Assembly: GCA_964481435.1 (NCBI GenBank)
Contig: CAYZTH010000001.1
Coordinates: 7,992 to 71,991, forward strand
Source: Candidatus Woesearchaeota archaeon
GTDB lineage: Archaea > Nanobdellota > Nanobdellia > Pacearchaeales > UBA284
DNA: 64,000 nucleotides
Reading direction: 5' to 3'
Within the stretch, counting starts at the first letter, position 1. Every line of letters begins with the position of its first letter. Below are positions 5,965 to 38,079 of this stretch, piece by piece. The notes beneath the pieces are model-generated. The model did not search any database. It was not told where the DNA came from and saw nothing but the letters and a program-made list of their open reading frames with translations. Made by a program: the position numbers and the translations under genes.

Positions 5965-6143
5965 ATATTATTTTTTATTTATGGTTTTGTATTTAGATTA
6001 TACTCTAAGATTTTTTTAATAATAAGTTATCAAGAAAAAAACACGAAGACAACTTATATGTTTCCCAACAATAGCCAGTACAGCATATAACGCCAGGCGC
6101 TTAACTTCTGTGATCTGACGGGAACAGGTGTTTCCACCTAGCT

Positions 6144-7031
6144 ATGGTCGTCTTCATTATCAAGTGGTTTTATTCATTTTTAAACCTTACGATTTGGAAT
6201 AAAAAACTTTTTAAACCAGAGTTTTCTACTTATAGAATGGGTGGGACTAAAGGCAAAGAAAAAATTGCGGAACTCTGCGGGGCAGTAATGGGTGACGGAT
6301 GGATTGAGGAAAGAGAAAGGGGATTTTTTATAGCGGGAGATCCTTCAGAAGATGGAGAATATTATGACCGGCATTTCTTAAAATTGATAAATGGAGTTTT
6401 AGGAATAAATGCAAAAACAAAAAATTTTCCATATTGGCGCGTTTATGGAATTGCGCTGTATAAAAAAGAATTAATCAGGAAATTGTTAGGTTTTGGGTTA
6501 ACTAAAGGAAAAAAGGTTAAGTCTGCATACGTCCCAGAATGGATATTTAATTCAGATAAAAAAATTGCTTTCTCATTTCTTCGGGGCCTCTTTGATACAG
6601 ATGGTTGTATTTTTTGTCAGAAAGATTATACTAAATATGCCGATGAATTTAACTCAAAATATCATACTAAAATTAGGATAAGAATAGGCTGTATTTCTTC
6701 AAAACTAATAGATCAGATATTTATTTTATGCAAAAAATATGGGTTTAAAGCAGTAAGAAGAACAGTTAAAAGAGGATTTAGTTATCATAGGAATCGTTGT
6801 GACACCCACATTTTAGAAATAAATGAAATTAAAAGCATCGGTAATTGGTTTGATAATCTTAAACCTTCAAACCCCAAGCATGTAACAAAATATTTAATAT
6901 GGAAGAAATTTGGTTTTTGTCCTCCAAAAACCACCCTTAAACAAAGAAAGGATATACTTAAAAATACACTCAACCCCTATAAATTATACGCGGGAGTGTC
7001 GGAGCGGTCAAACGAGAAGCGCTCAAGCTAA
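6144..7031 (+). CDS. LAGLIDADG-family endonuclease, double-motif single chain; 3' end overlaps the tRNA-Leu 5' exon
   Basis: Two LAGLIDADG-like motifs, LCGAVMGDGWI and LRGLFDTDGCI, about 100 aa apart; C-terminal KPSNPKH tail shared with the paralog at 11149-12024. The true start may be the internal ATG near 6235. The TAA stop lies inside the tRNA intron. Confidence 0.6.
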   Translation: MVVFIIKWFYSFLNLTIWNKKLFKPEFSTYRMGGTKGKEKIAELCGAVMGDGWIEERERGFFIAGDPSEDGEYYDRHFLKLINGVLGINAKTKNFPYWRVYGIALYKKELIRKLLGFGLTKGKKVKSAYVPEWIFNSDKKIAFSFLRGLFDTDGCIFCQKDYTKYADEFNSKYHTKIRIRIGCISSKLIDQIFILCKKYGFKAVRRTVKRGFSYHRNRCDTHILEINEIKSIGNWFDNLKPSNPKHVTKYLIWKKFGFCPPKTTLKQRKDILKNTLNPYKLYAGVSERSNEKRSS

Positions 7032-10950: not shown

Positions 10951-11024
10951 CGCACCCGAGAGGAGTTGAACCCCCAACCTAAGGCTTAGGATGCCTTCGC
11001 TCTATCCAGTTGAGCTACGGGTGC
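10951..11024 (-). tRNA. tRNA-Arg(CCT)
   Basis: Reverse complement folds as GCACCCG-TA-GCTC-AACTGGATA-GAGC-G-AAGGC-AUCCUAA-GCCTT-AGGTT-GGGGG-TTCAACT-CCTCT-CGGGTGC-G; anticodon CCT; T-stem has two G-U pairs. Confidence 0.75.
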
Positions 11025-11074
11025 TTGATATCTTTATCGATTATATATTTAAATAACTTCTTTAAGAAGAAGCA

Positions 11075-11146
11075 TGCGCCGGCCGGGGGTCGAACCCGGG
11101 TATATTGCTTGGAAGGCAATAGTCTTGACCACTGGACCACCAGCGC
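11075..11146 (-). tRNA. tRNA-Gly(TCC)
   Basis: Reverse complement: acceptor GCGCTGG/CCGGCGC (one G-U), D-arm GTC...GAC, anticodon stem ATTGC/GCAAT, loop CUUCCAA (anticodon TCC), T-arm CCGGG-TTCGACC-CCCGG, discriminator A. Confidence 0.7.
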
Positions 11147-11148
11147 GC

Positions 11149-12024
11149 TTAATTAAAGTATAAATTGAACTTTTTTAAATGTTTAGGATTAGCAGGTTTT
11201 ATTACTTCAAAAAACCTCTTGATATCCTCTTTTTTATACAAATAAACATTTTTCTTCCTTATGCCAAATTCAAAATCTATAAACTTTAGGCCACCTTTTA
11301 TTTGTTCTAAATAAACAGGGTCCCCACTGGATATTTCAACAACAGGGTCTTTTTTTCTTCTTATATAAAATGTTCCATCTGTATCAAATAGGCCCCTAAA
11401 ATAGTTAGCAAGGAGATTTTTATCAGAAAAAATTTCTTTAGGGATACCTAGTTTCCCCATTTTCCTTCCTTTTGGTAACTCAAATTCTTTTGTTAAAAAA
11501 TCAATTAATTCTTTGGAATATCCCCTTAACTTCAAATAATGATTAAATTTTTCAATATTGAACTTCATTTTAAAGAGTTCTTCAAATTTTTTCTTTAGAT
11601 ACAAGAAATAATTCGTATCACCCAAATTCCCTGTAACAGAAACTTCATGATTTATTTTGCTTAAATGCCCGTCTCCATTAAGAACGCCCAAAACTTCAGC
11701 AAGGTTCTGGTCTAAAATAGGTTTATTTATGCACTTTTTCAAATATTTTTCCATCACAATTATATCAAATTTTTTTGGATTAAATGAAGATATTTTTACC
11801 AATTTATCAAAAGTGATTTGAGGAATTAAGCAATCTCCTCTTTTGTATTTGAAAATCATATCTCTAGTAACCCCTAATTCCTTTGATAAATGGGGATAGG
11901 TAGAAACTTTTTCTTTAGCTTTTTTAAAGAGATTATTTCTTTCTAACGCATTAATCTTTATGAAATTAGCCATAATCCTTAGAAGAATTTCATATTTATA
12001 AATCTTATTATTTCTACTAACCAC
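11149..12024 (-). CDS. LAGLIDADG-family endonuclease, double-motif; stop codon 3 nt before the tRNA-Gly 5' end
   Basis: Motifs LAEVLGVLNGDGHL and FRGLFDTDGTFYI; C-terminal IKPANPKH tail matching the paralog at 6144-7031. Confidence 0.6.
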   Translation of the reverse strand: MVSRNNKIYKYEILLRIMANFIKINALERNNLFKKAKEKVSTYPHLSKELGVTRDMIFKYKRGDCLIPQITFDKLVKISSFNPKKFDIIVMEKYLKKCINKPILDQNLAEVLGVLNGDGHLSKINHEVSVTGNLGDTNYFLYLKKKFEELFKMKFNIEKFNHYLKLRGYSKELIDFLTKEFELPKGRKMGKLGIPKEIFSDKNLLANYFRGLFDTDGTFYIRRKKDPVVEISSGDPVYLEQIKGGLKFIDFEFGIRKKNVYLYKKEDIKRFFEVIKPANPKHLKKFNLYFN

Positions 12025-15439: not shown

Positions 15440-16615
15440 TTAATTTCTGTTTTCCAATAATCCCCTGATGGTGTTTATCTCTTTTTTGCTTAAGTCAGGA
15501 TTATTGGGAATATAAAAGCCGAAATTATGGATTATTTCGGCATTTTTCATCGCGTGTTTTTTATCTTTAAAGAAAGGCTGATTGACTATACAGCCAGCAA
15601 CAATTGGTCGAATCTCTACTTTTTTATCAAATTTATTTTTATAGTGTTCAAAAGTTTCCTTATTTTTGCATATAACCGGATAAGCAAAATTTGAGATAAA
15701 ATCCATGTGCCTTAAATTTAATCTTAAAAAATCCGGATTTTTTCTAGCAGAAAGATCATATCGTATAAAAGTGCTCATTCTTTTTCTTATAGTTTCAGGA
15801 AGATATTTCAGTTGCTCACATCCAAGAAAACCAGTAATCTCCGTGGGCCTAAGATTATATCCACTTATGTAAAAGCAGTATTTCTCATAAAAATCATCAA
15901 TTTGATGTTTATTCTTAAGTTCAGCCCTTTTTGTTGGATTAAGATTTCTGCCCCATCCATGGGCTCTTACCATGATCAGCATATTGTATAAATCTTCGTC
16001 ATCAGTGCAGACCATTCCGCCCTCAATAGTTGAGAGATGATGCCCGACATAGAATGAAAAAGTGCTTGCCAAACCAAAATTTCCCAATTTTTGATTCTTT
16101 ATTGTGCTTCCAAGGGATTCGCAATTATCCTCGATAAGGATAATTCCTTTTTTATTGCAAATCTCTTTTATCTTATCTAGATCTCCACAAAAACCAAGCA
16201 AGTTTGTTACAAAAAGAGCACTTATCTTCTTTTTATTCAGGCTCTCTAAAAGATTTTCTGAAGTGATATTAAGATTCTCTAAAGAGACGTCAATAGGTAC
16301 TGGATTCATATTTAATTGGGTTATTGGCATGACATTTGTTGCCCAGGTCACGGCAGAAAAACCCACATTTTTTCCCTCTTTAAGAAGACCAAGGTTAACC
16401 AGGGAGTGTATTAGAACAAGATTTGCAGAACTTCCGCTGTTGAACAGAACCGCGTATTTTCTGCCCTGATCGCGAGCAAACCTAGTTTCAAATTCCTTGC
16501 ATTTTTTGCCCATGCTTAGTTTCTTTGACTTCCAGATGAAATTATTTAATAAGAATTTTGTTTTAAATTCTTTATAGAACGTTTTTTTCATCAATAAGAT
16601 TATCTTTTTTTTCAT
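15440..16615 (-). CDS. PLP/PMP-dependent nucleotide-sugar 3-dehydratase of the DegT fold, ColD/E1-like (GDP-4-keto-6-deoxymannose 3-dehydratase candidate)
   Basis: DegT/DnrJ/EryC1-type sequence (NSGSSANL, IEDNCESLGS) but the Schiff-base Lys position reads FSFYVGHHLSTIEGG. His-His replaces Lys, as in ColD/E1 3-dehydrases rather than aminotransferases. Confidence 0.6.
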   Translation of the reverse strand: MKKKIILLMKKTFYKEFKTKFLLNNFIWKSKKLSMGKKCKEFETRFARDQGRKYAVLFNSGSSANLVLIHSLVNLGLLKEGKNVGFSAVTWATNVMPITQLNMNPVPIDVSLENLNITSENLLESLNKKKISALFVTNLLGFCGDLDKIKEICNKKGIILIEDNCESLGSTIKNQKLGNFGLASTFSFYVGHHLSTIEGGMVCTDDEDLYNMLIMVRAHGWGRNLNPTKRAELKNKHQIDDFYEKYCFYISGYNLRPTEITGFLGCEQLKYLPETIRKRMSTFIRYDLSARKNPDFLRLNLRHMDFISNFAYPVICKNKETFEHYKNKFDKKVEIRPIVAGCIVNQPFFKDKKHAMKNAEIIHNFGFYIPNNPDLSKKEINTIRGLLENRN

Positions 16616-16785
16616 TTTTCAGATTTTTAAAAGGATTCTTTTCTAGTTAAAAATGATTTAAAAAGTTTGTCTTCTCCGAAGAGAATAGCACTATCACTCA
16701 GTCGCAAAAAAAGTATATCCTACGGCCCTTTTATGAGCTTATTATTTTGACAAAGTTTATAAACCAAAAGATGCGTTCTTAAAAC

Positions 16786-17730
16786 ATGGAAAAAACAGAC
16801 AGGATCTTGGTCACCGGTTCTAATGGCTTTTTAGGAAAGGCCCTACTCTCCAAATTAAGAGGGCGCGGCTATACCAATCTAGTATTATTTACTAAAGAAG
16901 AATATGATATAGTTAAAGAGGCAGAAGTTGATAGGCTTTTCAAGGAAAAAGGGCCTTTTGATGTAGTTATACATCTTGCGGCAGTTATCGGTGGCATAGG
17001 ATTCAATAAAAGAAATCCAGGGTTATCTTTCTATGGCAATCTGATGATGAATACCCTAATGCAAGAATACTCAAGGATAAATAAAGTTAAAAAATTTGTA
17101 GGTATCGGGAGTGTTTGTGAATATCCTAAATTTACAGAAGTCCCATTTAAAGAAAAGAATCTCTGGGACGGTTATCCAGAAGAGACAAATGCGCCCTATG
17201 GGCTCTCAAAGAAGATGATGCTTGTACAATCACAGGCATACAGGGAGCAGTATGGATTTAATGGAATACATCTTTTACAAGTTAATCTCTATGGCCCCTG
17301 GGATAATTTTAGCCTTAATGATTCTCATGTAATTGCCGCTCTAATTCTAAAATTCCACAATGCAAAAGAAAAGAATCTCAATGAAGTTACTCTCTGGGGC
17401 ACAGGAAGTGCTTCAAGGGAATTTTTATATGTTGAAGATGCTGCAGAAGCGATAGTTTTGGCAATGGAGAGATATGATAAATCCGAGCCAGTGAACATAG
17501 GGGCAAGCAGGGAATTAACAATTAAAGAAGTTGCAGAGATAATCTCTAAGAACATTGGTTTCAAAGGGAAGATAATCTGGGACACATCAAAGCCAGATGG
17601 GCAGCCAAGAAGATGTCTTGACACAAGCAAAGCAAAAGAAGAATTTGGTTTTACCGCTAAGACTAGTTTTGAAGAAGGCATCAAGAAGACGGTAGAATGG
17701 TATGAATCGCAGAAGAAAAAAGGTCTTTGA
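16786..17730 (+). CDS. fcl: GDP-L-fucose synthase-like epimerase/reductase (Fcl/GMER; could function as ColC)
   Basis: SDR Rossmann start ILVTGSNGFLG; catalytic YGLSKKMMLVQSQAYREQYG (YxxxK) and NLYGPWDNF, both typical of Fcl. Confidence 0.75.
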   Translation: MEKTDRILVTGSNGFLGKALLSKLRGRGYTNLVLFTKEEYDIVKEAEVDRLFKEKGPFDVVIHLAAVIGGIGFNKRNPGLSFYGNLMMNTLMQEYSRINKVKKFVGIGSVCEYPKFTEVPFKEKNLWDGYPEETNAPYGLSKKMMLVQSQAYREQYGFNGIHLLQVNLYGPWDNFSLNDSHVIAALILKFHNAKEKNLNEVTLWGTGSASREFLYVEDAAEAIVLAMERYDKSEPVNIGASRELTIKEVAEIISKNIGFKGKIIWDTSKPDGQPRRCLDTSKAKEEFGFTAKTSFEEGIKKTVEWYESQKKKGL

Positions 17731-17794
17731 ATTAATATTTTTCTTATAGGCCGTATATAACAAAGAATATAAATCTAGTTTATTCTAATCTGTT

Positions 17795-19336
17795 ATGTAT
17801 CAATCTATAAAGAAAGTGATTAAATCTCTCTTTGACAAAGAGAATCAATCTCTCACTAAGCAGACAATAGAGAACTCTGCCTATAGTTTCGGAATAAATA
17901 TTGTTTCAAAACTGGGGGGAATAATTTTCTCTATCTTGCTGGCCAGGATTCTTTTGCCAGATCTTTACGGATTGTACAGCCTAGTTTTTTCTGTTGTTGT
18001 CACAATATCTGCTTTTACAGACTTGGGAGTTAATTCCGCTCTTTCAAGATATCTTGCAGAGTCCCTGTCGAAAGGAAAAAAATTTGAGGATGAGGCTCGT
18101 TCAAGAGTTCGTTTTCTTTTTAATTTGAAAGTCATTCTTTCATTTGGGATATCACTAATTCTCTTTTTGTTATCAACTGTAATTGCCACAGCCATATTCC
18201 ATAAACCAGAGATGGCCCTCCCACTGAGAATGGGTTCAATTTATTTACTTGTCTTGTCCATACAAGGCTTTTTCGCCATGATATTCTATCCATTGAAGAA
18301 GCTTAAGTATGGGTTATTCGCGGAAGTTATATTTCAAGTGGCGAAAATAGGGTTGTTCTTATTATTTATCAAGATGTATCTATCGGTTTCAAATGTTTTT
18401 TTAGCTATGGCCCTAGCCTTCTTTATATCTGCAGCATTCTATTTTCTTATTATCTTATTTAAACATAAGAAATTATTTTTTGGAAAACTAGTCAAGATAG
18501 AAAAGAGGAAAATTACAATCTTTTTAGGGTGGATTACCCTATTTACTGCATTTTCTTCACTTTATTCAACAATCAATACCCTTGTTCTTGGATTTTTCGT
18601 AGATAATAACTTTGTGGCTTACTACAGCGCAATTCTGTCTATAGTCCTTCCATTGAGCGTAGTCATAAATTTAGGGGGCATTGTTCTGCCAATTTTTACA
18701 GAAATTACTGGAAAAAGATTGAAAAGAGGATTTAAGAAAATAGTAAAATACTCTGCAATTGTGTCAATCCCTTCAAGTGTAGGTCTCGCATTTATCTTGA
18801 TTCCAGTCCTAAGAGTAATATACGGTCCAAGTTATGTCCCGCCAGAATTCTATAATGTAATCCTAATCTCCACGATTTTGCTTTCAATGTTGGTATTTGA
18901 AGAGTTGTTTATCTCCTTGTACCTTTCTTTATTTGCAGCAAAAGAGAAGTTCAATCGACCAACAATCAGTTTTATCCTTATGACGGTATTGAATATAGTC
19001 CTTGATTACATCTTGATTAAACTGTTACTGCCTTACGGACAGATCTGGGCGGTTTTAGCGGTTTCAATCGCAACACTTGTAACTAGATACTTGAATCTTC
19101 TTATTTTAGGGGCTCTAGCCAAAAAAGAATTCAGGCTAGGATTGAATAAAAGAACAATTTTATCTCCTCTACTTGCCTCATTGATTATGCTTGGTTTTCT
19201 ATTCCTATTTAACTGGATATTTAATCCAAATCTGATTCTTACAATAATCATGGTCGGACTTGCGATAATCCTCTATTTTATCTTCTTATTTTTGATAGAG
19301 AACTTCGGGGATAAAAAAGCAAAAGAGGGAGATTAA
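17795..19336 (+). CDS. oligosaccharide flippase, Wzx-like (MOP superfamily)
   Basis: 513 aa, ~14 TM helices, polysaccharide-biosynthesis-protein pattern. Confidence 0.65.
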   Translation: MYQSIKKVIKSLFDKENQSLTKQTIENSAYSFGINIVSKLGGIIFSILLARILLPDLYGLYSLVFSVVVTISAFTDLGVNSALSRYLAESLSKGKKFEDEARSRVRFLFNLKVILSFGISLILFLLSTVIATAIFHKPEMALPLRMGSIYLLVLSIQGFFAMIFYPLKKLKYGLFAEVIFQVAKIGLFLLFIKMYLSVSNVFLAMALAFFISAAFYFLIILFKHKKLFFGKLVKIEKRKITIFLGWITLFTAFSSLYSTINTLVLGFFVDNNFVAYYSAILSIVLPLSVVINLGGIVLPIFTEITGKRLKRGFKKIVKYSAIVSIPSSVGLAFILIPVLRVIYGPSYVPPEFYNVILISTILLSMLVFEELFISLYLSLFAAKEKFNRPTISFILMTVLNIVLDYILIKLLLPYGQIWAVLAVSIATLVTRYLNLLILGALAKKEFRLGLNKRTILSPLLASLIMLGFLFLFNWIFNPNLILTIIMVGLAIILYFIFLFLIENFGDKKAKEGD

Positions 19337-19368
19337 TATGCCTGTTACGTCCTTTTTTTATTTATTTT

Positions 19369-20349
19369 TTAGAACCAATTTCCCTTTTTGAGGATTTTTG
19401 TGGCAATGAATATTTTGAGTGTTAAAAGAATATTGCGGTCCATCCTGCTTTTTTTGGCTTCAAATTCTCTCTTATAGTTTTCGTCAATTACTGGGATAAC
19501 CGGGGCCTTGCAGCTTCCAAGCCACCAAGCTAATTCTGTGAAGGTGCTCAAATATGTCCCAAGGATTTTTTTTGTCTTTGAAAGCAGGATAAGATCTACC
19601 AATCCTTCTTGTGTCACGCTAACATTTTCTCTGTCTCGATTATTTTTAGGATAAACAATTACCTTTTCCTTTAATTTAGATTTGAAAAGATTTTCAGTTT
19701 CTTCGCAATCTGTGCATAAGAAGAACATTTGTTCTGGATTTTCTTTTAATATCTTGTCAATCTCTTCGAAAAAACGCTCATTTGAAGAGACTTTTCCAAG
19801 ACCTTCCTTTCCAAGAAGAAAATCCCCTCGTCTTGCATGAATTCCGACGAAATCAGTCAGGTCATTTTTTTTCAAGAATTTTTCGACTTCTTCCCTAACA
19901 AAACTAATTGGGACAAGTCTTTTAAGATATTCAAGTATGTCTTTTCTTATATTCATAGGGATTCCTTCAAATTCATGGTCTATATCATTTCCTTTTTTTG
20001 TAGAGAATAAACTGGGGAATATCTGTTTTTCTTCTCTTTCACCAGGAAAAAGGATCCATCGCGCATTATCTGTTGCAAGATATTCGTGAGCAGACTCTGG
20101 AATTTCATTTACGTCTGCACGATAGACTTTCAGGTTTTTCTTGTCAATTTTTTTCAAATCCTCTTTTTTTAGTTCAGGGAACTGGTTTTCAAATAGGTCG
20201 TTGAATTTTCCCCTTAGGGTATGGTTTGAAGGCCAGTACAAGAGAAGTTCTCGGCCATATTTATCTCCAAGCCTCCACATAGAAATAAGGCATTTAATCC
20301 TGTTTGATATCCCCCCCGGGTTGGCAGCAATTATTTTCCTATTTTCCAT
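19369..20349 (-). CDS. glycosyltransferase family 11-like (alpha-1,2-fucosyl/colitosyl-transferase type)
   Basis: N-terminal PGGISNRIKCL (GGLGNQ-like motif I), GIHARRGDF (GT11 HVRRGDY motif) and C-terminal YLSTFTELAWWL (SxFSxWaAwL-like). Confidence 0.55.
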   Translation of the reverse strand: MENRKIIAANPGGISNRIKCLISMWRLGDKYGRELLLYWPSNHTLRGKFNDLFENQFPELKKEDLKKIDKKNLKVYRADVNEIPESAHEYLATDNARWILFPGEREEKQIFPSLFSTKKGNDIDHEFEGIPMNIRKDILEYLKRLVPISFVREEVEKFLKKNDLTDFVGIHARRGDFLLGKEGLGKVSSNERFFEEIDKILKENPEQMFFLCTDCEETENLFKSKLKEKVIVYPKNNRDRENVSVTQEGLVDLILLSKTKKILGTYLSTFTELAWWLGSCKAPVIPVIDENYKREFEAKKSRMDRNILLTLKIFIATKILKKGNWF

Positions 20350-20404
20350 TTTTTATAGTTTAAAAGATCATTTAGAAATTTTTTAGATATAGACTCGTTG
20401 AATA

Positions 20405-21508
20405 TTAAACACATGAATTAAATAAGTTTTTTCCTAGTTCTTTAGCCTTTTCTAAGATGTATTCCTCGGTAAATTTTTCAGGAGGATTAATCGGGATGAT
20501 TCCCATTTTTTCAAATTTTTCTCTTAAATCTGAAATTAGCATCATCCTGGCTAATTCTTTGAATTTCACTTTTGGGTTCCAACCAAAGGTTTTCCTTGCC
20601 TTACTAGCATCTCCTAGCAAATAAGGAACCTCTGCAGGTCTTTTATATCGCTCATTTATGCCTAAGAATTTATTATAATCAAGGCCTATTAATTTGAAGC
20701 ATTCATCTAAAAATTCTCTAACCGTATGAGATTCTCCAGTAGCTATGACAAAATCATCTGGCTTGTCCTGTTGTAAAATCTGCCACATTGCCTCAACATA
20801 TTCTTCAGAGTAGCCCCAGTCTCTCTTAGCATCTAGATTTCCTAGGGTGACGTTCTTCCTCTCTCCAACAAGAATCTCTGCTATTTCCCTTGTTATCTTT
20901 CTTGTTACAAAATTTAATCCCCGTCTTGGTGATTCATGATTGAATAGGATTCCATTTGAGGCAAATAATCCATAAGCGTCTCTATAGAGTTTGGTTAGAT
21001 GAAAGGCCGCAACTTTCGAAATACCATATGGGCTCTGTGGATTTAATGGAGTATCCTCATTCTGAGGGGGTGCAGAAGTTCCAAACATTTCTGAACTAGA
21101 TGCCTGATAGAACTTTCCCTTATAGTCCATTTTCTTCAAGGTATCAAGGATTCGATATACTCCAAGCAAGTCGATGTTTATTGTGGACATGCCATTGTCA
21201 AAACTTATTCCGACATGACTCTGCGCAGCAAGATTATAAATTTCATCTGGTTGGACTTGTTCAATTATGTTTCTTAAGCTAGATGTATCTGTAAGATCAG
21301 CATACTTAACAACGAAAGGGCAGTCTGGATCTGAGTAGTCTTCTTCATATTTCTTAATAAGATGGTCTATTCTTTGAGTATTCGGATAACTTGCTCTTCG
21401 GACTATTCCCCTAACAAGATATCCCTTTTTGAGAAGGAGTTCTGCTAGGTAAGAGCCATCCTGTCCCCCAATCCCGGTAATGAACGCTACCTTTTTTCCG
21501 TTTATCAT
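20405..21508 (-). CDS. gmd: GDP-mannose 4,6-dehydratase
   Basis: AFITGIGGQDGSYLAELLL, NLAAQSHVGISFD, and YxxxK region; full-length Gmd-like (367 aa). Confidence 0.9.
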   Translation of the reverse strand: MINGKKVAFITGIGGQDGSYLAELLLKKGYLVRGIVRRASYPNTQRIDHLIKKYEEDYSDPDCPFVVKYADLTDTSSLRNIIEQVQPDEIYNLAAQSHVGISFDNGMSTINIDLLGVYRILDTLKKMDYKGKFYQASSSEMFGTSAPPQNEDTPLNPQSPYGISKVAAFHLTKLYRDAYGLFASNGILFNHESPRRGLNFVTRKITREIAEILVGERKNVTLGNLDAKRDWGYSEEYVEAMWQILQQDKPDDFVIATGESHTVREFLDECFKLIGLDYNKFLGINERYKRPAEVPYLLGDASKARKTFGWNPKVKFKELARMMLISDLREKFEKMGIIPINPPEKFTEEYILEKAKELGKNLFNSCV

Positions 21509-21689
21509 AATAAATGTTTAATCAGCCCCCTTTTTAAAATTATCTGATATAAAATAGATATAGCGAGAAGTTGTTTCTAGTCGGTGAAAATATTTCAAAT
21601 AACCTCAAATAAAAAACATTTTTTTTTCGCCAAAAACATTTAAAAAGAATTAAAAGTTGTTTATGCTTAGAAATTAAAGTAGATTCAAA

Positions 21690-22691
21690 ATGGATAAAAA
21701 AGAAATAAAGATAAATTTCCGGTATTTTGACCCAAATTTTAATTCAGAAGATAATTTATTTACGGATCTTTTGAGAAGGAGGTACCATGTTGTGATAAGT
21801 GACAATCCAGATTATGTCTTTTATTCGGTTTATCCAGAAAATGCCGGTAAAGGTCTAGGGGGAATGGGCAGAGTTATCAAAAAGATCTCTCCGGATCTTT
21901 ACATATTCTCCAGAAAAATCGTTTCAAAAGTTTTATCTGTTTTCAAAAAGAAGAACAAAGTAGAGGGGAAATTTGTCAAGATCTTTTTTGGTGCAGAACA
22001 CACCAAACCAAATATGAAAGAGTGTGATTGGGCATTTTCTTCACACTTTGAAGAGGAAATCAATCATCCAAAGTATATGAGAATAGCTTCCTACCGAGTT
22101 ACTGACTTTAAACTAGAGAACGCAGGTAAGCCCCCGATAAAAAAAGACCTAGACCTGGAGCAGATAAAGAAGGAAAAGACAAAATTCTGCAATTTTATTT
22201 ATTCCCAGGATATCAAGGAAAGAAATGAATTTTTCAAGATATTGAATGAGTATAAGCCAGTAGATTCGCCAGGAAGATGCATGAATAATATGCCGGCAAT
22301 TAGTGTAAATGACCCAAAGAAATCAAGAGAAGCAGTAAATTGGGCAGAGGAAAAGTTGAAGTTCATCAGGCCCTATAAGTTTACAATAGCTTTTGAGAAC
22401 TTCTCTAGTCCTGGCTGGGTCACAGAAAAACTGACTCATCCCATGTTGGTTAATAGTGTCCCAATTTATTTTGGACATGGGGCAGTTAAAGAAGACTTCA
22501 ATACAAAGAGTTTCATAAATTTCCACGATTTTAAAGATATGAAGGAGTTCGTTGAGCATATCATAAAAGTTGACAACGATGATTCACTTTATGAAGAGTA
22601 CTTGAGACAGCCTTTTTATGAGAATAATATCCCTTCAGAGTATGTTGACGATGAGCGGATATTGAAAAGATTTGAAGAAATATTTGGATAA
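21690..22691 (+). CDS. glycosyltransferase family 10-like (alpha-1,3/4-fucosyltransferase type)
   Basis: KFTIAFENFSSPGWVTEKLTHPMLVNSVPIYFG matches the FxxxFENS...YxTEK fucosyltransferase motif. Confidence 0.6.
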   Translation: MDKKEIKINFRYFDPNFNSEDNLFTDLLRRRYHVVISDNPDYVFYSVYPENAGKGLGGMGRVIKKISPDLYIFSRKIVSKVLSVFKKKNKVEGKFVKIFFGAEHTKPNMKECDWAFSSHFEEEINHPKYMRIASYRVTDFKLENAGKPPIKKDLDLEQIKKEKTKFCNFIYSQDIKERNEFFKILNEYKPVDSPGRCMNNMPAISVNDPKKSREAVNWAEEKLKFIRPYKFTIAFENFSSPGWVTEKLTHPMLVNSVPIYFGHGAVKEDFNTKSFINFHDFKDMKEFVEHIIKVDNDDSLYEEYLRQPFYENNIPSEYVDDERILKRFEEIFG

Positions 22692-22701
22692 TTTCATTGA
22701 A

Positions 22702-23688
22702 TTATTTTTTATATCCGTCTGGATGATTCTTTAACCAGTTAAATGCGGTCCTTATTATGGTGTCTATAGAACTATACTCTGGGTTCCACCCAAGTTCCTT
22801 CTTTATTTTTTTCGAGCTTGCTATAAGGACATCAGGGTCCCCAGGCCTTCTTGCCTTTTCGATAGCGGTTATTTTCATTCCAGTAACCTTTCTTGCTGTA
22901 TCAATTATTTCCTTCACAGAGAAACCCTTTTCACTCCCCAGGTTATATCTCTCTGTCTTCCCGCCACTATCGAGGTACCTTAGAGCCAAGATGTGGGCCT
23001 TTGCAAGGTCAGTTACATGGATGTAATCCCTGACACCAGTACCATCCCTTGTTTTATAATCGGTCCCAAAAATATCTAAATGGTCAATTTTTCCTAGGGC
23101 AGCAAGCAAAACTCTTGGAATAAGGTGGTGTTCTGGTTTATGGAATTCTCCTAACTGACCCTCTGGGTCTGCTCCTGCAGCGCAGAAGTATCTCAAAGAA
23201 ACGGATTTTATGCCATAAGCATGATCATAATACCCTAGTATTCTCTCAAAGACTAGTTTTGTATAACCATAGGGGTTACTTGGTTTCTTAAGGTCCTCCT
23301 CTTGTATGGGAACCCTCTTAGGTATGCCATAGACTGCCGCAGAAGATGAAAAAACAATTTTTTTCACATTATATTTTCTCATAGCCTCTAGAAGGTTCAG
23401 GCCGTTGGAAATGTTGTTCATAAAATATTTTTCAGGGTTTGAAACAGATTCTGGAACATCTGCATAAGCTGCAAAATGAACAACAGAATCTATCTTTTCT
23501 TTTTTGAATAGGGCATCAAGTCTGTTCCTATCAGCCAAGTCTCCTTTGATGAATTTTCCACCAACAATGGCTTCCCTATATCCATTTTCAAGGCTGTCAA
23601 AGATGATAACTTCATTGCCCTGTTTAAGCAATTCCTTTACAGTATGGCTGCCTATATAGCCCGCACCCCCCGTAACCATAATTTTCAT
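22702..23688 (-). CDS. galE: UDP-glucose 4-epimerase
   Basis: MKIMVTGGAGYIGSHTV, YxxxK (YGYTKLVFERIL); 328 aa, GalE-like throughout. Confidence 0.85.
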   Translation of the reverse strand: MKIMVTGGAGYIGSHTVKELLKQGNEVIIFDSLENGYREAIVGGKFIKGDLADRNRLDALFKKEKIDSVVHFAAYADVPESVSNPEKYFMNNISNGLNLLEAMRKYNVKKIVFSSSAAVYGIPKRVPIQEEDLKKPSNPYGYTKLVFERILGYYDHAYGIKSVSLRYFCAAGADPEGQLGEFHKPEHHLIPRVLLAALGKIDHLDIFGTDYKTRDGTGVRDYIHVTDLAKAHILALRYLDSGGKTERYNLGSEKGFSVKEIIDTARKVTGMKITAIEKARRPGDPDVLIASSKKIKKELGWNPEYSSIDTIIRTAFNWLKNHPDGYKK

Positions 23689-23812: not shown

Positions 23813-24757
23813 ATGGAAGATAAAAATCCAAAGGTGTCTATAATCCTGCCGGTTTATAATGCAGAAAAATTTCTAGATGAGAATCTGCTCTCTATCTTAA
23901 ATCAAAGTTTTGAAGATTTTGAGTTTATCATAATTAACGATGAATCAAAAGACAAATCTGCAGAGATAATACAAAGATATGCGGAAAAAGATAAAAGAAT
24001 AATCTTTTTGAATAATGAAAAAAATATGGGATGTGTGAAAACCAGAAACAAGGGATTAAAGCTAGCAAGAGGAGAATATATTGCGGTAATGGACCCAGAT
24101 GATGTTTGTCTTACAGACCGATTTAAAATTCAGGTAGACTATTTAGACAGGCATCCAGAAATTTTCTTAATCGGCGGTTCTGCGATTGTAATTGATGAAG
24201 AAGGGAATAGGATGGGGATTTTATTAAAAGAGGATAATCCCGAGAAAATTGCAAAAAAGATGGTAAACGCAAACTGCATGATTCACCCCTCAGTTATGCA
24301 TAGAAACACACAAGAATTCTTTTATCGAGAGAAATTTATTATTTCTGATGATTATGACTTTCTTCTAATGGTATTATCTACAAATAAGAAAATGTCAAAT
24401 GTTCCGGAATTTATTGTAAAATATCGGATTAACAAGGGTTCAGCCACAAATACTAAGAAGAATCCAGAATTTTTCTTTAAAATAGCAAAAGAATTTTATA
24501 GGCAGCGAGTAGAAACCGGTAAGGATGATTATGATCAATTGGACTTAGACAAGGTACAGCCCAAAATGGTAGATTTCAATAAGTTAAATTCAAAGACCAA
24601 GATTGTTGTTGGATTTCAGGACAATCAAATGAAAAATGTCAGAAAAGAGATAAAAGATTATATCAAGACTTATAATTTTGAAAAACAACTCGCGGCCTAT
24701 TATCTGCTCAGTTTTTTACCAATAGGGTTCACTAAACTTTTAAGGAAGAAATTATAG
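23813..24757 (+). CDS. glycosyltransferase family 2
   Basis: SIILPVYNAEKFL, DxD-type motif (AVMDPDD), GT-A fold. Confidence 0.75.
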   Translation: MEDKNPKVSIILPVYNAEKFLDENLLSILNQSFEDFEFIIINDESKDKSAEIIQRYAEKDKRIIFLNNEKNMGCVKTRNKGLKLARGEYIAVMDPDDVCLTDRFKIQVDYLDRHPEIFLIGGSAIVIDEEGNRMGILLKEDNPEKIAKKMVNANCMIHPSVMHRNTQEFFYREKFIISDDYDFLLMVLSTNKKMSNVPEFIVKYRINKGSATNTKKNPEFFFKIAKEFYRQRVETGKDDYDQLDLDKVQPKMVDFNKLNSKTKIVVGFQDNQMKNVRKEIKDYIKTYNFEKQLAAYYLLSFLPIGFTKLLRKKL

Positions 24758-25858
24758 GCCGAATCTCTGATCATATTTTATCTTCTCAAATAGATTAAGT
24801 GCCTCTTCCACACACTGGTCTATATTGATATACTTATACTTGCCCAATCGTCCAAGAAAATGGATATTTTTTTCATTTCCTGATTCCTTTACATATTTTT
24901 GTAAAGAGTCCATATTTTTCTTATTATAAACCGGATAAATTGGTTCTTTTCCCCAGGTGAAAAACTCTTTACAAATAATTGTCTTTTTTGATTTTATTTT
25001 ATAGAACTTTTTAAATTCCGTTATTCTCGTGAATTTGAATTTTTCTTGAGGAAAATTAACCACCGAGTTGGGGAGAAAACTTTTTATTTTTAATTTCTCA
25101 AAAAGAAAGTCGATGCTTCTATAGTCCAGTGTTCCGAACTTATAATTGAAATATTCATCAATTTTACCTGTCCAGATGATCTCTTTAGCAACATTTTTTA
25201 ATATTTCTTGGTAGGGAGTATTTAATTTTATAAAAATATTCTTATTTGAAAGCATTTTTTTGAACATATCTGTAAATCCTTTTTTTGGCATTCCTTGGAA
25301 AGGACTATCAAAATAGAAATTATTTCGGTTATATCTTATAGGGAGACGTTCCAAAACAGATCTGTCTAATTCAGAAGGATACAAATCCCATTGCTTTTTT
25401 GTATAACTCTTGACAAATGCCTCATATAACTCTCTCCCAAACTTAGAAAGCACGACATCCTCCGAATTTTTTATTATTTTTGTTACAACGGCCTTATCTT
25501 TAAGGAAATTCTTTAATTCTTCTTCATTTTTTAAGTTTATATTAAAGAATTTATTTACAGTATTGAGGTTTATGGGAATTGGGAAAAACCGCCCTTCGTA
25601 GTAAGATAATACCCTGTGCTTATAGTCATTAAATTTTGTAAATCTTCTTAGATAGTCAAACACTCTTTTACTCTTCGTATTAAATATATGCGGCCCATAT
25701 TTTTGCACTAAAATTCCCTCGCATTTATAGTCGTAACAAGCGCCCCCTATATGGTCTTTTTTATCAATAATCAAGATTTTCTTGCCAATAGAAGCTAATC
25801 TCTCTGCAAGCACAATTCCCGATATGCCACTTCCCACAATAAGATAGTCGTATTTCAT
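24752..25858 (-). CDS. glf: UDP-galactopyranose mutase
   Basis: MKYDYLIVGSGISG FAD motif, DHIGGACYD, KYGPHIFNT; collinear with E. coli Glf. Confidence 0.85.
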   Translation of the reverse strand: MKYDYLIVGSGISGIVLAERLASIGKKILIIDKKDHIGGACYDYKCEGILVQKYGPHIFNTKSKRVFDYLRRFTKFNDYKHRVLSYYEGRFFPIPINLNTVNKFFNINLKNEEELKNFLKDKAVVTKIIKNSEDVVLSKFGRELYEAFVKSYTKKQWDLYPSELDRSVLERLPIRYNRNNFYFDSPFQGMPKKGFTDMFKKMLSNKNIFIKLNTPYQEILKNVAKEIIWTGKIDEYFNYKFGTLDYRSIDFLFEKLKIKSFLPNSVVNFPQEKFKFTRITEFKKFYKIKSKKTIICKEFFTWGKEPIYPVYNKKNMDSLQKYVKESGNEKNIHFLGRLGKYKYINIDQCVEEALNLFEKIKYDQRFGL

Positions 25859-25913: not shown

Positions 25914-26726
25914 GTGCAGCAGGAATTATTCGCACGCCTCAGGGACAACAGCCATAAAGATTTAAATACCCTCTCAATTACTCAGGTTATGACAAATTCA
26001 ACAAGAATCGCAATCGCAACAATGACCTATGATAAAAAAGGCGATGCAGAGTTAATGAGAGAAACTCTGCGTTTTTTAGCAAGCAAAGGTCATCAGGCTT
26101 ATATTGCAGATGGCGGAAGTTCTACGAGATTTCTTGATGACCTTAGACTAATGGGCCATGAAGTTGTGCAGGTACCAGGTGGTTTAACCTGTCAGCACAT
26201 AAATTCTATTCAAAGAGCAGCAGGAAATGCAAAAACAGTCCTCTATATGGAGCCTGACAAGTTTAAATGGGTCTCTGAACATCTGGAAGAAGCAATAGAT
26301 AAATATTTTAGTATGCGCGAAGGGCCAGATATTTTTGCCGTCGTTAGTAGAACTTCCGATCAGATGAACACCTTTCCACCTCATCAGCGAACATGCGAAG
26401 GATTGATGAATGATCTAATTCATAAGAAAACTGGGTTCAAAGGTGACTCTATCTATGGCCCAAAGGTTTTCTCATCAAAGCTTGCCGCACACTTGAATGA
26501 ACTTAGTGGAAAAGACCTAGGTTGGGCAGGTCTTATGTTCTCAGTTGGTAGGGCTTACAATTTAGGAATGCCCCTAAGGTCAATAGAAGCAGCTTCTGAA
26601 TGTCCTAGTAGTCAAACATCAGAAGATAAAAACGCAGCAGCCTATAGGGAAAGGCAATTTAAACAGAATGCATTAGGACTATACCTTGGATTAGGAGAAA
26701 CAGTACCTGCAGAGTTCTTAGCCTAG
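25914..26726 (+). CDS. hypothetical protein, compositionally atypical (GC-richer, Lys-poor)
   Basis: 270 aa from a GTG start (alternative in-frame ATG at 25989); visibly higher G+C and few Lys codons compared with neighbours; no motif recognised confidently. Confidence 0.4.
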   Translation: MQQELFARLRDNSHKDLNTLSITQVMTNSTRIAIATMTYDKKGDAELMRETLRFLASKGHQAYIADGGSSTRFLDDLRLMGHEVVQVPGGLTCQHINSIQRAAGNAKTVLYMEPDKFKWVSEHLEEAIDKYFSMREGPDIFAVVSRTSDQMNTFPPHQRTCEGLMNDLIHKKTGFKGDSIYGPKVFSSKLAAHLNELSGKDLGWAGLMFSVGRAYNLGMPLRSIEAASECPSSQTSEDKNAAAYRERQFKQNALGLYLGLGETVPAEFLA

Positions 26727-28192
26727 TTCTTTTTATTAATTCTAAAAATACTCTTTATTTTTCTTGCCGAGTAATTAACAAGGGCCTTTCTTTTTGTCCA
26801 AAAAACATACTTGAGAGTATAGGGAAGCAGAGGAAACTGTAGAATAAAACCCCTCAGGGTCAGCATCCTGAACAAAGAAAGATTATCTAGGAACTCTTCT
26901 TTTAGTTCATATAATTTCTCTAAACTATTCTCCGCAGTATATGCCGGAGTAGGCTTGTCAGACATCCAAAAATCATCCGTCATCATTCCTTTTTGTTTAG
27001 CAAGTTCATAGACCTGTGTTCCAGGATAGACTGTAAGTATGGCCCCGTCAGTATACGGGTGGTACTTTATTCTTTGCAGTTTCTTTATCAGATTAATTGT
27101 GTTTTTTATTGTTTTTTCATTTTCTCCAGGAAGCCCTATGATTATGAAGGGTTTGATATTTATTTTAGACTTCGCGAACATTTTGAATGCATTGATTATA
27201 TCCTCTTGATTTATCCCTTTATTTGCCATCCTCAAAATATCGTTGTCCCCGCTTTCAACGCCCAAAAGAACTCTCTTGAAATTAGCCCTTTCTAAGAATC
27301 TGATCATTCTCTCACTTAGTGGTTTTATCCTGCCACTAGCAATAAAATCTTTCTTTATACCTCTTCGGAGTATTTCTTTGCATATTTCAATTACTCTCTC
27401 ATTATCTACAAAAAGAGAGTCATCATGGAACCAGATTTCTTTTATTTGTGGAAATCTCTTGACCAAATATTCAATCTCGTCAACAACATTTTTTGGGCTC
27501 CTGAATCTGACTCTTCTTTTTGTCAGGGGATTTAGGGAACAGAAACTGCATTTGAAAGGACATCCCCTTGAACTTAGAATACATGCAGAATCGCGGGGAG
27601 TATTAAAAAAAAGTTCATGCTTCGGAAAAGGAAGACTATCCAAATCTTCAATAAGTTCTCTTGGCGGAGTCATTATAATTTTTCCTTTCTTAAAAAAAAC
27701 AATTCCTTTTATTTTTTTTGAATCAGCAGTCTTGCTCTTAACTATTTCTGTCAGAGTCAATTCTCCTTCTCCTAAGACAATGATTACATACGGATACTTT
27801 TTCAATAGTTGGTCATACATGACTGTTGCATGGATACCGCCCAAAATTATCTTTATTTTTGGATGGTTTTTGTGGATGTACTCTATTAGCATATAACTGC
27901 TTACCCTATTTGGGGTCAGCATCTGTATTCCAACAAAATCAGGAGAGAAAGAATTTATTTTTTCTATGACCTGGTTCTTACAGGTTTCATAATCAAGGTG
28001 ATTAAAGCATAGGCTCTCAACGGTAATCCCCTGAGATTCCAAATAAGAATGAAGATATGCAATTCCCAGAGCATAATGAGATTCTGCACCTAATTTCACG
28101 CCTTTTTTATTATCTTTTTTTGTAGTCATCAAGGATATTTCCTCAAAACTGCTTGTAACAAATAGGATTTTTTTGCCGGATTTTTTCATCAA
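26723..28192 (-). CDS. cobalamin-binding radical SAM protein (class B rSAM)
   Basis: N-terminal B12-binding Rossmann domain with GGIHAT; radical SAM Cys triad SSRGCPFKCSFCSL; paralog of 28562-30004. Confidence 0.75.
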   Translation of the reverse strand: MMKKSGKKILFVTSSFEEISLMTTKKDNKKGVKLGAESHYALGIAYLHSYLESQGITVESLCFNHLDYETCKNQVIEKINSFSPDFVGIQMLTPNRVSSYMLIEYIHKNHPKIKIILGGIHATVMYDQLLKKYPYVIIVLGEGELTLTEIVKSKTADSKKIKGIVFFKKGKIIMTPPRELIEDLDSLPFPKHELFFNTPRDSACILSSRGCPFKCSFCSLNPLTKRRVRFRSPKNVVDEIEYLVKRFPQIKEIWFHDDSLFVDNERVIEICKEILRRGIKKDFIASGRIKPLSERMIRFLERANFKRVLLGVESGDNDILRMANKGINQEDIINAFKMFAKSKINIKPFIIIGLPGENEKTIKNTINLIKKLQRIKYHPYTDGAILTVYPGTQVYELAKQKGMMTDDFWMSDKPTPAYTAENSLEKLYELKEEFLDNLSLFRMLTLRGFILQFPLLPYTLKYVFWTKRKALVNYSARKIKSIFRINKKN

Positions 28193-28561: not shown

Positions 28562-30004
28562 TTAGAATAATCTGCCTTTTTTTAACAGAGTTTCCACTCT
28601 CCCAAAGAGATATTTCATTAAGTAAGGGAGTGTCTCGAATTGGGCTTTAAATCCTCTTGGAGTTATTATTCTATAAAATGAGAGGTTATCCGCGAGAATT
28701 TCCTCGAACTTTTTTAATTCTGCATAACTGTGTTCTGCAGTATATAGCGGAATCTCCTTATCCGTAAGCCAGAAATCATCATTGATAAATCCCTTGGACT
28801 TTGCAATTTCGTAAACTTCGGTTCCAGGATAAACAAATAGGATATTGAAGCATCTGGGATAAGATACATATTTTATTTTTTGTAACTTTTTTATGAATTT
28901 GGCGCTTTCATTTATTGTATGCAGATTTTCTCCAGGCAGACCAACAATTAGATATGTTTTAAGGTGTATTTTCGACTTTGAAAATAACTTAAATGCCTTA
29001 ATTATGTCCTCTTGATTTATCCCTTTATGGCAGGATCTTAGAAGTTCATTGTCTCCGCTTTCTATACCCAGTGTGACTCTTATGAAATTTGCTTCCTCAA
29101 GTTTTTTAACAACTTCGGCACTCAAGGGTTTAATTCTTCCGCTGCACACAAAATCCAGTTTTATTTTTCTTCTCATTATTTCGTTGCAGATGTCTATCAC
29201 CCGCTGATTATCAACAAAGAAGGAATCATCATTTATTGAGAGTTCTTTCATCTGAGGAAATTTCTTTACCATATACTCTATTTCATCAACGACTTTTATA
29301 GGGTCTCTGAATCTCACCGCCCTTTTAGATTCTGGATTCAAGCAGCAAAAACTGCAGGCAAAAGGGCATCCTCTTGCAGATAAAAGACTCCCGGTCCATC
29401 TTTTGCTACCCTTAAAGAATACTTCGTGTTTTGGAAAAGGCAGGCTATCTAGGTCTTTTATTAATTCCCTAGGTTTTGTTCTTGTTACTTTCTTATTTTT
29501 ATAAAATGCGATTCCATCAATTTTCTTAAGATTAGGTTTTTTCTTGTCTAATTCTTTAATTAATTCAAATAGAGTTATCTCTCCGTCCCCAAGGGCCACT
29601 ATTAAAAAGGGATATTTTTCTATCAGTTGCTTATACATTATTGTAGCATGTATTCCCCCGGCAATTATCTTAATCTTAGGATAATTTTTATGTATCCAGT
29701 CAATAAGATAGTATGTGCTGACTCTATTACAGGTTAACATTTGAAAGCCAACAAAATCTGGAGAGAAACTTTTTATTTTTTCAATTACTTCCCTGTAGCA
29801 GTCTTTATACGGTTTATGATTTAGCCAGAGAGTTTCAACTTCCATGTTCTTTGATTCAAGGTAAGAATGAATGTATGCGAGGCCAAGGGGATAATAAGTT
29901 TGCTCTCCGAAGTCTTCACTGACTTTCCCCTCTGGAACTAACGGAAGATCTTCAAAACTTGTCGTTATTAGCAATACCTTTTTTCTGCCGGATTTTTTCA
30001 TCAA
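28562..30004 (-). CDS. cobalamin-binding radical SAM protein (class B rSAM), paralog
   Basis: Same architecture: GGIHAT B12 motif and SARGCPFACSFCCL; N-terminus MMKKSGRKK nearly identical to the paralog. Confidence 0.75.
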   Translation of the reverse strand: MMKKSGRKKVLLITTSFEDLPLVPEGKVSEDFGEQTYYPLGLAYIHSYLESKNMEVETLWLNHKPYKDCYREVIEKIKSFSPDFVGFQMLTCNRVSTYYLIDWIHKNYPKIKIIAGGIHATIMYKQLIEKYPFLIVALGDGEITLFELIKELDKKKPNLKKIDGIAFYKNKKVTRTKPRELIKDLDSLPFPKHEVFFKGSKRWTGSLLSARGCPFACSFCCLNPESKRAVRFRDPIKVVDEIEYMVKKFPQMKELSINDDSFFVDNQRVIDICNEIMRRKIKLDFVCSGRIKPLSAEVVKKLEEANFIRVTLGIESGDNELLRSCHKGINQEDIIKAFKLFSKSKIHLKTYLIVGLPGENLHTINESAKFIKKLQKIKYVSYPRCFNILFVYPGTEVYEIAKSKGFINDDFWLTDKEIPLYTAEHSYAELKKFEEILADNLSFYRIITPRGFKAQFETLPYLMKYLFGRVETLLKKGRLF

Positions 30005-33726: not shown

Positions 33727-33736
33727 GTTTATAATG

Positions 33737-34876: not shown

Positions 34877-35025
34877 TTCATTTTTTTATGCCAGAGGCAT
34901 CCGCCTATTTATTTTTTTCTTGCAGATTCGTGCCAGAAGACACGGGCAAGATTTAATTTGTTCGATAATAATGCGCTTCTTTTTACATATAAATACTTCA
35001 TTCTTTCTTGTGTGGATTTTATTTT

Positions 35026-35853: not shown

Positions 35854-35862
35854 TTTTAATTT

Positions 35863-36930: not shown

Positions 36931-36984
36931 GAAGAATAAAACCAGATATATTTTATAAATCTATATTTTTGCGTTTTGTTCTGT

Positions 36985-38013: not shown

Positions 38014-38079
38014 TTTATTTATTGAGATATTTAGGTATATCCAAAAAATTAAGAAATCTTATAAATCTTTCCTATACCC

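Follow-up and report, generated by a model that had tools for sequence, protein, structure and literature searches.

The window, that is, the whole stretch of DNA analysed here, comprises 64,000 nucleotides of contig CAYZTH010000001.1 (forward-strand positions 7,992 to 71,991, GenBank assembly GCA_964481435.1) assigned to a Candidatus Woesearchaeota archaeon, and all positions given below are counted from its first letter. Positions 15,440 to 22,691 hold a locus of six genes whose open reading frames (ORFs) were verified at the coordinates listed in Table 1. These encode a homologue of ColD, the GDP-4-keto-6-deoxy-D-mannose 3-dehydratase of colitose synthesis, a short-chain dehydrogenase/reductase (SDR) of the Fcl/GMER family, a Wzx-like flippase, two fucosyltransferase-type glycosyltransferases (GTs) and the GDP-mannose 4,6-dehydratase Gmd. 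The ColD-like gene and the Fcl-like gene next to it are transcribed divergently from an intergenic region of 170 bp that they share.

Table 1. Predicted genes of the sugar locus and of the island around it (positions in the window; aa, amino acids; PMP, pyridoxamine 5'-phosphate)
Feature	Position	Strand	Basis of assignment
ColD-type PMP-dependent GDP-4-keto-6-deoxy-D-mannose 3-dehydratase homologue	15440-16615	-	Pfam DegT, PDB ranking, His column, tree
Fcl/GMER-family SDR (GDP-L-fucose synthase type), 314 aa	16786-17730	+	GDPFucSynFcl, GMER 1bsv
Wzx/MOP-type oligosaccharide flippase	17795-19336	+	Pfam Polysacc_synt (100 bits), Polysacc_synt_3
GT-B fucosyltransferase-superfamily glycosyltransferase with 'HARRGDF'	19369-20349	-	Fold and HxRRGD motif; GT11 subthreshold
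Gmd, GDP-mannose 4,6-dehydratase	20405-21508	-	TIGR01472 (434.8 bits, cut-off 415); Pfam GDP_Man_Dehyd (401 bits)
GT10 alpha-1,3/4-fucosyltransferase homologue	21690-22691	+	Glyco_transf_10 (78.1 bits), FucT_N (48.3 bits), both above gathering score
GalE	22702-23688	-	TIGR01179 (432 bits, cut-off 262)
GT2	23813-24757	+	Pfam Glycos_transf_2
UDP-galactopyranose mutase Glf	24752-25858	-	Pfam GLF
B12-binding radical-SAM protein	26723-28192	-	
B12-binding radical-SAM protein, paralogue	28562-30004	-	
Cupin + RmlD/SDR-like + sugar 3-C-methyltransferase fusion, 787 aa	30143-32506	-	Domain matches
GT4-type glycosyltransferases	32581-33789, 33737-34876, 35863-36930	-	Pfam
GT2-type glycosyltransferase	35026-35853	-	Pfam Glycos_transf_2
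Glycos_transf_4 initiating phosphosugar transferase	36985-38013	-	Pfam
AglB/STT3 oligosaccharyltransferase	38080-40980	-	Pfam STT3, STT3-PglB_core
Second flippase	40977-42332	-	Pfam Polysacc_synt

The ColD-like protein and its subfamily

The ORF of the ColD-like protein has 391 aa (383 aa with other gene callers, which start at Met9), matches the Pfam family DegT_DnrJ_EryC1 (PF01041) with 200 bits over residues 27-383 and aligns over its full length to the ColD structures. Residues 186-200 read FSFYVGHHLSTIEGG and contain His192-His193. HMMER alignments to PDB chains pair His192 with His188 of E. coli O55 ColD and with His220 of Yersinia E1 ('ypaHH'), and the register is set by the ColD variants H188N (3b8x, 'fysNh'), H188K (2r0t, 'fysKh') and S187N/H188K (3gr9, 'fyNKh'), which stand opposite 'vgHH' of the query. 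An earlier note on this DNA had claimed a His-His pair at the position of the Schiff-base lysine of aminotransferases, and the histidine column is indeed found there after gapping. In a MAFFT alignment of 109 sequences the catalytic column holds histidine in 91 and lysine in ArnB (IKN), WecE (TKN), Per (NKT) and 15 other paralogues; among 29 close homologues His192 is invariant. Annotated genomes of E. coli supplied the reference proteins: ColD, ColC, Fcl, Gmd and GT11 came from O55:H7, whose colitose cluster was found by walking from gatZ, ArnB and WecE from K-12, and Per from O157:H7. When the ColD-like and gmd genes were compared by blastn with E. coli genomes, no match or only short gmd matches were obtained.

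The resemblance to ColD is not confined to the histidine. The cofactor motif EDNCES (residues 162-167 in the window protein) is identical in E. coli ColD, where it covers Asp159 and Glu162, and ColD residues R219, N248, R250, E329 and R331 correspond to R223, N254, R256, E334 and R336; all of these are among the 49 columns with a conservation of 95% or more in the clade of the window protein (window-type clade) and an identical residue in E. coli ColD. Residues R250, E329 and P332 of ColD (R256, E334 and P337 in the window protein) are common to ColD and Per and are not found in E1, ArnB or WecE. Per is the other enzyme using GDP-4-keto-6-deoxymannose, and these shared residues, which in the ColD structures presumably contact GDP, give a hint of GDP specificity in the window protein.

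When the whole PDB was ranked against the ColD-like protein, the four E. coli O55 ColD entries came first (2gms with E=1.5e-64 and 221 bits), followed by Yersinia E1 (1e-35, 125 bits), a third 3-dehydratase (9wvy) and then aminotransferases (103 bits at most; PseC 1e-28, Per 1e-24). Sequence identity amounts to 36% over 353 aa with O55 ColD, 28% with E1 and 25% with Per. A neighbour-joining (NJ) tree of 44 sequences, which is a distance method only (capped Kimura distances, 200 bootstraps), recovered the window-type clade in 200/200 replicates, its grouping with E. coli ColD in 194/200, an E1-like clade in 162/200 and all histidine enzymes together in 169/200, with the window protein apart from E1, Per, ArnB and WecE. 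The phylogenetic check proposed in the earlier note, in which a grouping with 4-aminotransferases would have spoken against a dehydratase, was therefore decided in favour of ColD.

All three characterised 3-dehydratases (E1, ColD and SpnQ) have histidine in place of the lysine, and E1 and SpnQ carry in addition a four-cysteine [2Fe-2S] motif and require a reductase; ColD has neither and regenerates PMP from glutamate (PMC8987622). The ColD mechanism and the Gmd/ColD/ColC route have been described in the same work (PMC8987622). In the window protein the cysteine-rich insertion of E1, 'RDCYCAPGCDNTCKK', is faced by the cysteine-free 'GRNLNPTKRAE..LKNK', and the nine cysteines show no C-x-C-x7-C pattern. 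The enzyme probably needs no iron-sulfur cluster, and 3-deoxygenation with PMP and glutamate is the activity that we would predict for it. Every sequence-level test that was run identified the protein as a member of the ColD family. ColD/WbdK of E. coli O55:H7 (2gms, 2r0t, 3b8x, 3gr9) is its nearest solved relative and shares with it the DegT fold, the histidine column, the cofactor motif, the equivalents of the five residues named above, the lack of iron-sulfur cysteines and the linkage to gmd and an fcl-family gene. The window protein differs in belonging to a separate subclade (DPANN archaea, Candidate Phyla Radiation (CPR), Bacteroidota and others), in having Gly191 for Ser187 and in its archaeal host, where the locus accompanies AglB and is not an O-antigen cluster.

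A scan of species-representative genomes returned 80 window-type ColD loci, the proteins of which are 47-61% identical to the query, nearer than E. coli ColD at 36%. The subfamily (47-66% identity) is found in Woesearchaeota, Pacearchaeota, an unclassified archaeon and very many CPR/Patescibacteria, and also in Bacteroidota (Chryseobacterium, Flavobacterium, Mucilaginibacter), Planctomycetes, Streptomyces and others, so that the ColD signature is not a rarity of this window. ORFs lying up to 3 kb from each ColD gene were identified by BLAST against reference proteins from the window and from E. coli. Gmd was present in 32/80 loci, an Fcl-family gene in 50/80, both in 26/80 and GT11 in 14/80, and in 39/80 the Fcl-family gene lies at most 150 bp from the ColD gene. 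Many of the loci are tight gmd-colD-fcl or fcl-colD-GT11 operons, as in the Woesearchaeota locus L003, and in its genomic surroundings the window-type subfamily behaves like ColD.

Two proteins encoded on metagenomic contigs (L084:166-1365 and L093:1187-2368) branch off deeply in the NJ tree as a third group of His-type DegT proteins, resembling neither ColD nor E1. The gene on L084 is placed directly upstream of a window-type Fcl gene and a Gmd-like gene. This group may represent another 3-dehydratase lineage.

The Fcl-like protein, Gmd and the transferases

The Fcl-like protein matches the GMER structure 1bsv with E=5.5e-59, and GMER residues Ser107, Cys109, Tyr136, Lys140 and His179 correspond to its Ser109, Cys111, Tyr138, Lys142 and His181, which include the Ser-Tyr-Lys triad and the Cys/His residues of epimerisation. 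With these catalytic residues kept, it can be aligned over its whole length to E. coli Fcl (36% identity, 215 bits) as well as to E. coli ColC (32%, 157 bits); unlike these two it falls in a separate clade whose members occur mostly with Gmd alone. In the NJ analysis the Fcl-like proteins adjacent to ColD are polyphyletic, being scattered over both major clades and mixed with true Fcl, and ColC is consequently not a family that can be defined by sequence here. Pairwise similarity to ColC versus Fcl was dropped as a discriminator on account of this polyphyly and of the 39% identity between E. coli ColC and E. coli Fcl themselves. The earlier note had proposed that the flanking Fcl/GMER-like gene could act as ColC. 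The position of the gene and its GMER catalytic residues are in keeping with this, but the gene is not a dedicated ColC and the protein scores nearer to Fcl. It is probably the ordinary GDP-fucose synthase of the lineage, doubling as ColC. The clade pairs with Gmd without ColD, and for this reason the locus can be read as a fucose locus to which ColD was added, with Fcl serving both branches. L-Colitose is 3-deoxy-L-fucose, which makes the conversion of the ColD product by Fcl chemically plausible: epimerisation beside the 4-keto group and subsequent reduction at C4, as in the Fcl reaction, would turn it into GDP-colitose.

A metagenome scan returned 25 close relatives of the Fcl-like protein (54-61% identity). 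Those on L089 and L090, apparently near-duplicate contigs, adjoin an E. coli-type His-DegT gene, and two others are found near the third His-type DegT. A Chitinophagaceae metagenome-assembled genome (MAG; L080) has two Fcl paralogues (L080:2209 and L080:9069), one of which adjoins ColD and GT11 genes and the other, nearer to E. coli Fcl, lies 6.8 kb away; unlike the window, this MAG seems to have a dedicated ColC in addition to a separate Fcl.

Gmd, expected near the ColD-like gene from the first inspection of the sequence, exceeds the cut-off of its TIGR01472 model, and the GT10 homologue, likewise anticipated, is a solid assignment (E=1.3e-16 to the H. pylori fucosyltransferase 2nzw, in addition to its Pfam scores). 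The name 'GT11-like' that had been given to the other transferase was too specific. With the Pfam GT11 model it scores 21.0 bits, short of the gathering score (23.9), and its similarity to O55 GT11 is limited to a single segment of 115 aa (26% identity) centred on HxRRGD. Forty relatives of this protein match NodZ (28), GT11 (28), O-FucT (17) and FUT8 (14), and its best sequence match in the PDB is POFUT2 with E=0.012. An AlphaFold2 model (mean predicted local distance difference test score, pLDDT, 89.8) was compared by Foldseek, and all of the best 50 matches listed were GDP-fucose transferases: FUT8, NodZ (template modelling score up to 0.63), AtFUT1 and POFUT2, with E down to 6.5e-11. The motif 'HARRGDF' occupies residues 171-177; G169 and R173 are invariant in the family and H171 and D176 nearly so. 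The protein belongs to the GT11/GT23/GT37/GT65-68 superfamily, not securely to GT11, with a predicted fold nearest to NodZ/FUT8, and we regard it as a candidate fucosyl- or colitosyltransferase of uncertain CAZy family. The presence of two fucosyltransferase-type enzymes fits a dual output of GDP-fucose and GDP-colitose.

Host and surrounding glycan island

The host of the locus is archaeal and Pacearchaeota-like. Archaeal genes in the window encode RadA, prefoldin, aIF5A, an aIF2B-family protein, an Spt5-NGN protein, an EMC3-like insertase, a pyruvoyl arginine decarboxylase and AglB/STT3, and the top named relatives of RadA are Candidatus Pacearchaeota MAGs (81-86% identity). The sugar genes are flanked by SecDF, tRNAs and 5S rRNA upstream and by AglB, the aIF2B-like protein, prefoldin, SecY, aIF5A and RadA downstream, and the description of the region as an archaeal glycosylation locus, made from the letters alone, was thus well founded.

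The sugar genes open an island of 27 kb (15.4-42.3 kb) which has the composition of an agl locus, with two flippases, five glycosyltransferases, an initiating transferase and AglB/STT3. Pfam matches in its minus-strand module (32581-42332) include Glycos_transf_1. Judging from proximity alone, the sugars are most likely bound for an N-linked surface glycan. Residues 375-787 of the 787-aa fusion match MtmC (4rv9, E=1.7e-46), KijD1 and TcaB9. The fusion predicts a branched-chain (3-C-methyl) deoxysugar, for which the substrate could be the product of Gmd or that of ColD.

GalE, the GT2 next to it and Glf together predict galactofuranose in the same glycan. The two paralogous B12-binding radical-SAM proteins of the island could methylate sugars or lipids as class B methylases. 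Outside the island there are two free-standing LAGLIDADG_3 ORFs, one (6144-7031, +) overlapping the end of the 5S rRNA gene (6044-6155, -) and the other (11149-12024, -) abutting the genes for tRNA-Gly and tRNA-Arg (10951-11146, -). A protein of 762 aa with a T2SSE domain (type II/IV secretion ATPase; 56050-58338, -) is unusually long for a pilus or archaellum ATPase of archaea.

Proposed pathway, alternatives and meaning

We propose that Gmd would convert GDP-mannose to GDP-4-keto-6-deoxy-D-mannose, with which the ColD-like enzyme would form a ketimine with PMP; His192 would then take the C4' proton and the 3-hydroxyl would be expelled. Hydrolysis would free GDP-4-keto-3,6-dideoxy-D-mannose, and glutamate would regenerate PMP with no reductase partner. 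The Fcl-family enzyme would epimerise and reduce this dideoxy intermediate to GDP-L-colitose and would turn the unprocessed Gmd product into GDP-L-fucose, so that the locus probably yields both. The GT10-like enzyme, the fucosyltransferase-superfamily enzyme or both would place fucose and colitose onto a lipid-linked glycan; the Wzx-like protein would flip it, and AglB, encoded 15 kb downstream, would probably attach it to surface proteins. To the reading as a whole, a ColD-type PMP-dependent 3-dehydratase without an iron-sulfur cluster in a four-step Gmd/ColD/Fcl/transferase pathway, we assign a probability of roughly 0.6. The homology, the pattern of catalytic residues, the clade, the linkage of the genes and the archaeal host are observations; we infer the GDP specificity, the dual role of Fcl, the pairing of transferases with sugars and the final acceptor. 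The colitose set of E. coli O55 (gmd, colD/wbdK, colC/wbdJ and GT11) is the closest known counterpart, the same four kinds of genes lying within 7 kb in the window. Unlike that set, the window has an additional GT10 and shares only the 115-aa segment with the O55 GT11; its glycan would presumably be carried on dolichol and end at AglB, not Wzy/WaaL.

Other explanations have to be considered, and three of them were rejected on the PDB ranking, the missing cysteines, the histidine column and the archaeal flanks. The protein could be an E1-type 3-dehydratase acting on a CDP-hexose, as in the abequose, paratose, tyvelose and ascarylose pathways: the top NCBIfam model is RfbH (200 bits), several homologues bear the JGI/KEGG-style name 'CDP-6-deoxy-D-xylo-4-hexulose-3-dehydrase', and E1/RfbH/DdhC of Yersinia pseudotuberculosis (3bcx) has the same 'HH' motif, with histidine for lysine, and also performs a PMP-dependent C3 deoxygenation (PMC8987622). 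We consider this highly improbable, as the RfbH score is far under the cut-off of 423 bits, ColD is ahead of E1 by about 96 bits in the PDB, the iron-sulfur cysteines of E1 are missing, the tree puts the window protein in another clade, the family genes are linked to gmd, and no E3-like reductase, CDP-glucose 4,6-dehydratase or cytidylyltransferase was found among the window ORFs. It is just as hard to accept the protein as a GDP-perosamine synthase or another sugar 4-aminotransferase, to which the NCBI name of the homologues ('DegT/DnrJ/EryC1/StrS family aminotransferase') would point. The protein does have the DegT fold, and its positions N254, R256, E334, R336 and P337 are common to Per/RfbE (E. 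coli O157; Caulobacter 3bn1), which presumably uses the same substrate and shares the candidate GDP-site residues; but Per transaminates by means of a Schiff-base lysine ('NKT') and is just 25% identical, and lysine is present in 18/18 aligned aminotransferase-type sequences whereas histidine is invariant in the window clade. E. coli ColD reportedly becomes an aminotransferase only when S187N and H188K are combined (the work of Cook et al. in 2009). The idea that the sugar genes are bacterial DNA, from CPR for example, mis-joined to an archaeal contig and of no consequence for archaea deserves hardly any credence. The ColD-like, Fcl-like and fucosyltransferase homologues resemble those of CPR/Patescibacteria (52-56%) to nearly the same degree as those of other DPANN (56-61%); however, archaeal markers flank the sugar genes on both sides of one contig, the GC content is uniform across the window (0.32-0.40), and Woesearchaeota and Pacearchaeota MAGs have the same ColD family. 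The gene order of the locus is moreover identical in three independent assemblies (ENA, JGI and Logan), from which it follows that it is not an assembly artefact. Mis-assembly is not likely, and an ancient inter-domain transfer of the sugar genes is.

The remaining alternative accepts a genuine ColD and holds that Fcl does not finish colitose: Gmd and Fcl would make GDP-L-fucose, and another enzyme would take the 4-keto-3,6-dideoxy intermediate to a different, possibly branched, 3,6-dideoxyhexose, the candidate being the 787-aa fusion, the C-terminal 410 aa of which give the matches to MtmC, KijD1 and TcaB9 and which has cupin and reductase-like modules of its own. Its supporting points are that the Fcl-like clade is mainly a partner of Gmd without ColD, that several homologous loci have gmd and colD with other SDRs and not fcl, and that one homologue (P0108) joins ColD to a non-Fcl SDR. 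Yet the ColD-like and Fcl-like genes are the closest of divergent neighbours in the window, an fcl-family gene is found within 150 bp of ColD in nearly half of the homologous loci, and the methyltransferase fusion is 13.5 kb off. We judge a product other than colitose to be unlikely, though it deserves to be kept in mind. P0108 is a natural fusion of 666 aa, made up of an SDR of about 270 aa, by eye not Fcl-like, and a ColD-like domain.

Several observations count against the colitose pathway proposed here. The Fcl-like protein reaches 281 bits with the NCBIfam model GDPFucSynFcl, under the cut-off of 500, and is not in a ColC-specific clade by sequence, the available discriminating tests having spoken against ColC; about ten of its 25 relatives lie beside Gmd and none beside a window-type ColD. 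Both gmd and fcl are absent from the neighbourhood in 24/80 of the homologous loci, where the neighbours are mostly GT4/GT2 glycosyltransferases and methyltransferases; these 24 loci were checked for alternative 4,6-dehydratases and nucleotidyltransferases and nothing contradicting GDP was found. The P0108 fusion points to a simple 4-reductase route by which part of the subfamily probably makes other 3,6-dideoxyhexoses. No window-type ColD seems to be characterised, the identity to E. coli ColD is 35-36%, and the exchange of ColD Ser187 for glycine is next to the catalytic histidine column. Neither ManB nor ManC (phosphomannomutase and mannose-1-phosphate guanylyltransferase) occurs among the window ORFs of at least 120 aa, implying that the supply of GDP-mannose is encoded elsewhere or taken from another organism serving as a host. 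The link to AglB, finally, is one of gene proximity only.

In its widest form our proposal is that DPANN archaea of the Pacearchaeota/Woesearchaeota type put L-colitose on surface glycans, probably N-linked by AglB, that one Fcl finishes both fucose and colitose, and that the genes are exchanged with CPR bacteria sharing the habitat; this we advance tentatively, with a little less than even confidence. A more adventurous variant would have the ColD product serve also as a substrate of the 787-aa fusion, giving a new branched dideoxy sugar.

The literature searched yielded no report of colitose or any other 3,6-dideoxyhexose in a glycan of archaea, in keeping with the earlier note, whose author knew of none, and a 2024 review of the sugars of archaeal N-glycosylation includes neither (PMC11407970). 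The GDP-colitose pathway was predicted for 719/12,939 genomes in a survey of 2020, which noted its absence from TACK archaea, a remark which implies predicted pathways in other archaea; the supplements of the survey give no list of colitose by archaeon (PMC7725333).

The finding is a functional re-annotation together with a testable prediction, and brings no new mechanism, enzyme class or kind of system. Databases mis-name a large ColD subclade, spread over DPANN, CPR and Bacteroidota and still uncharacterised: NCBI calls its members 'aminotransferase' and JGI 'CDP-...-3-dehydrase'. The locus further suggests that an organism with Fcl can do without a dedicated ColC. Colitose and the other 3,6-dideoxyhexoses are classic determinants of bacterial O-antigens. 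DPANN archaea live attached to other cells, and their surface chemistry is for that reason probably central to host recognition. If the proposal is true, these archaea would show a bacterial-type immunodominant sugar on their surface, and colitose would become the first 3,6-dideoxyhexose known from an archaeal glycan.

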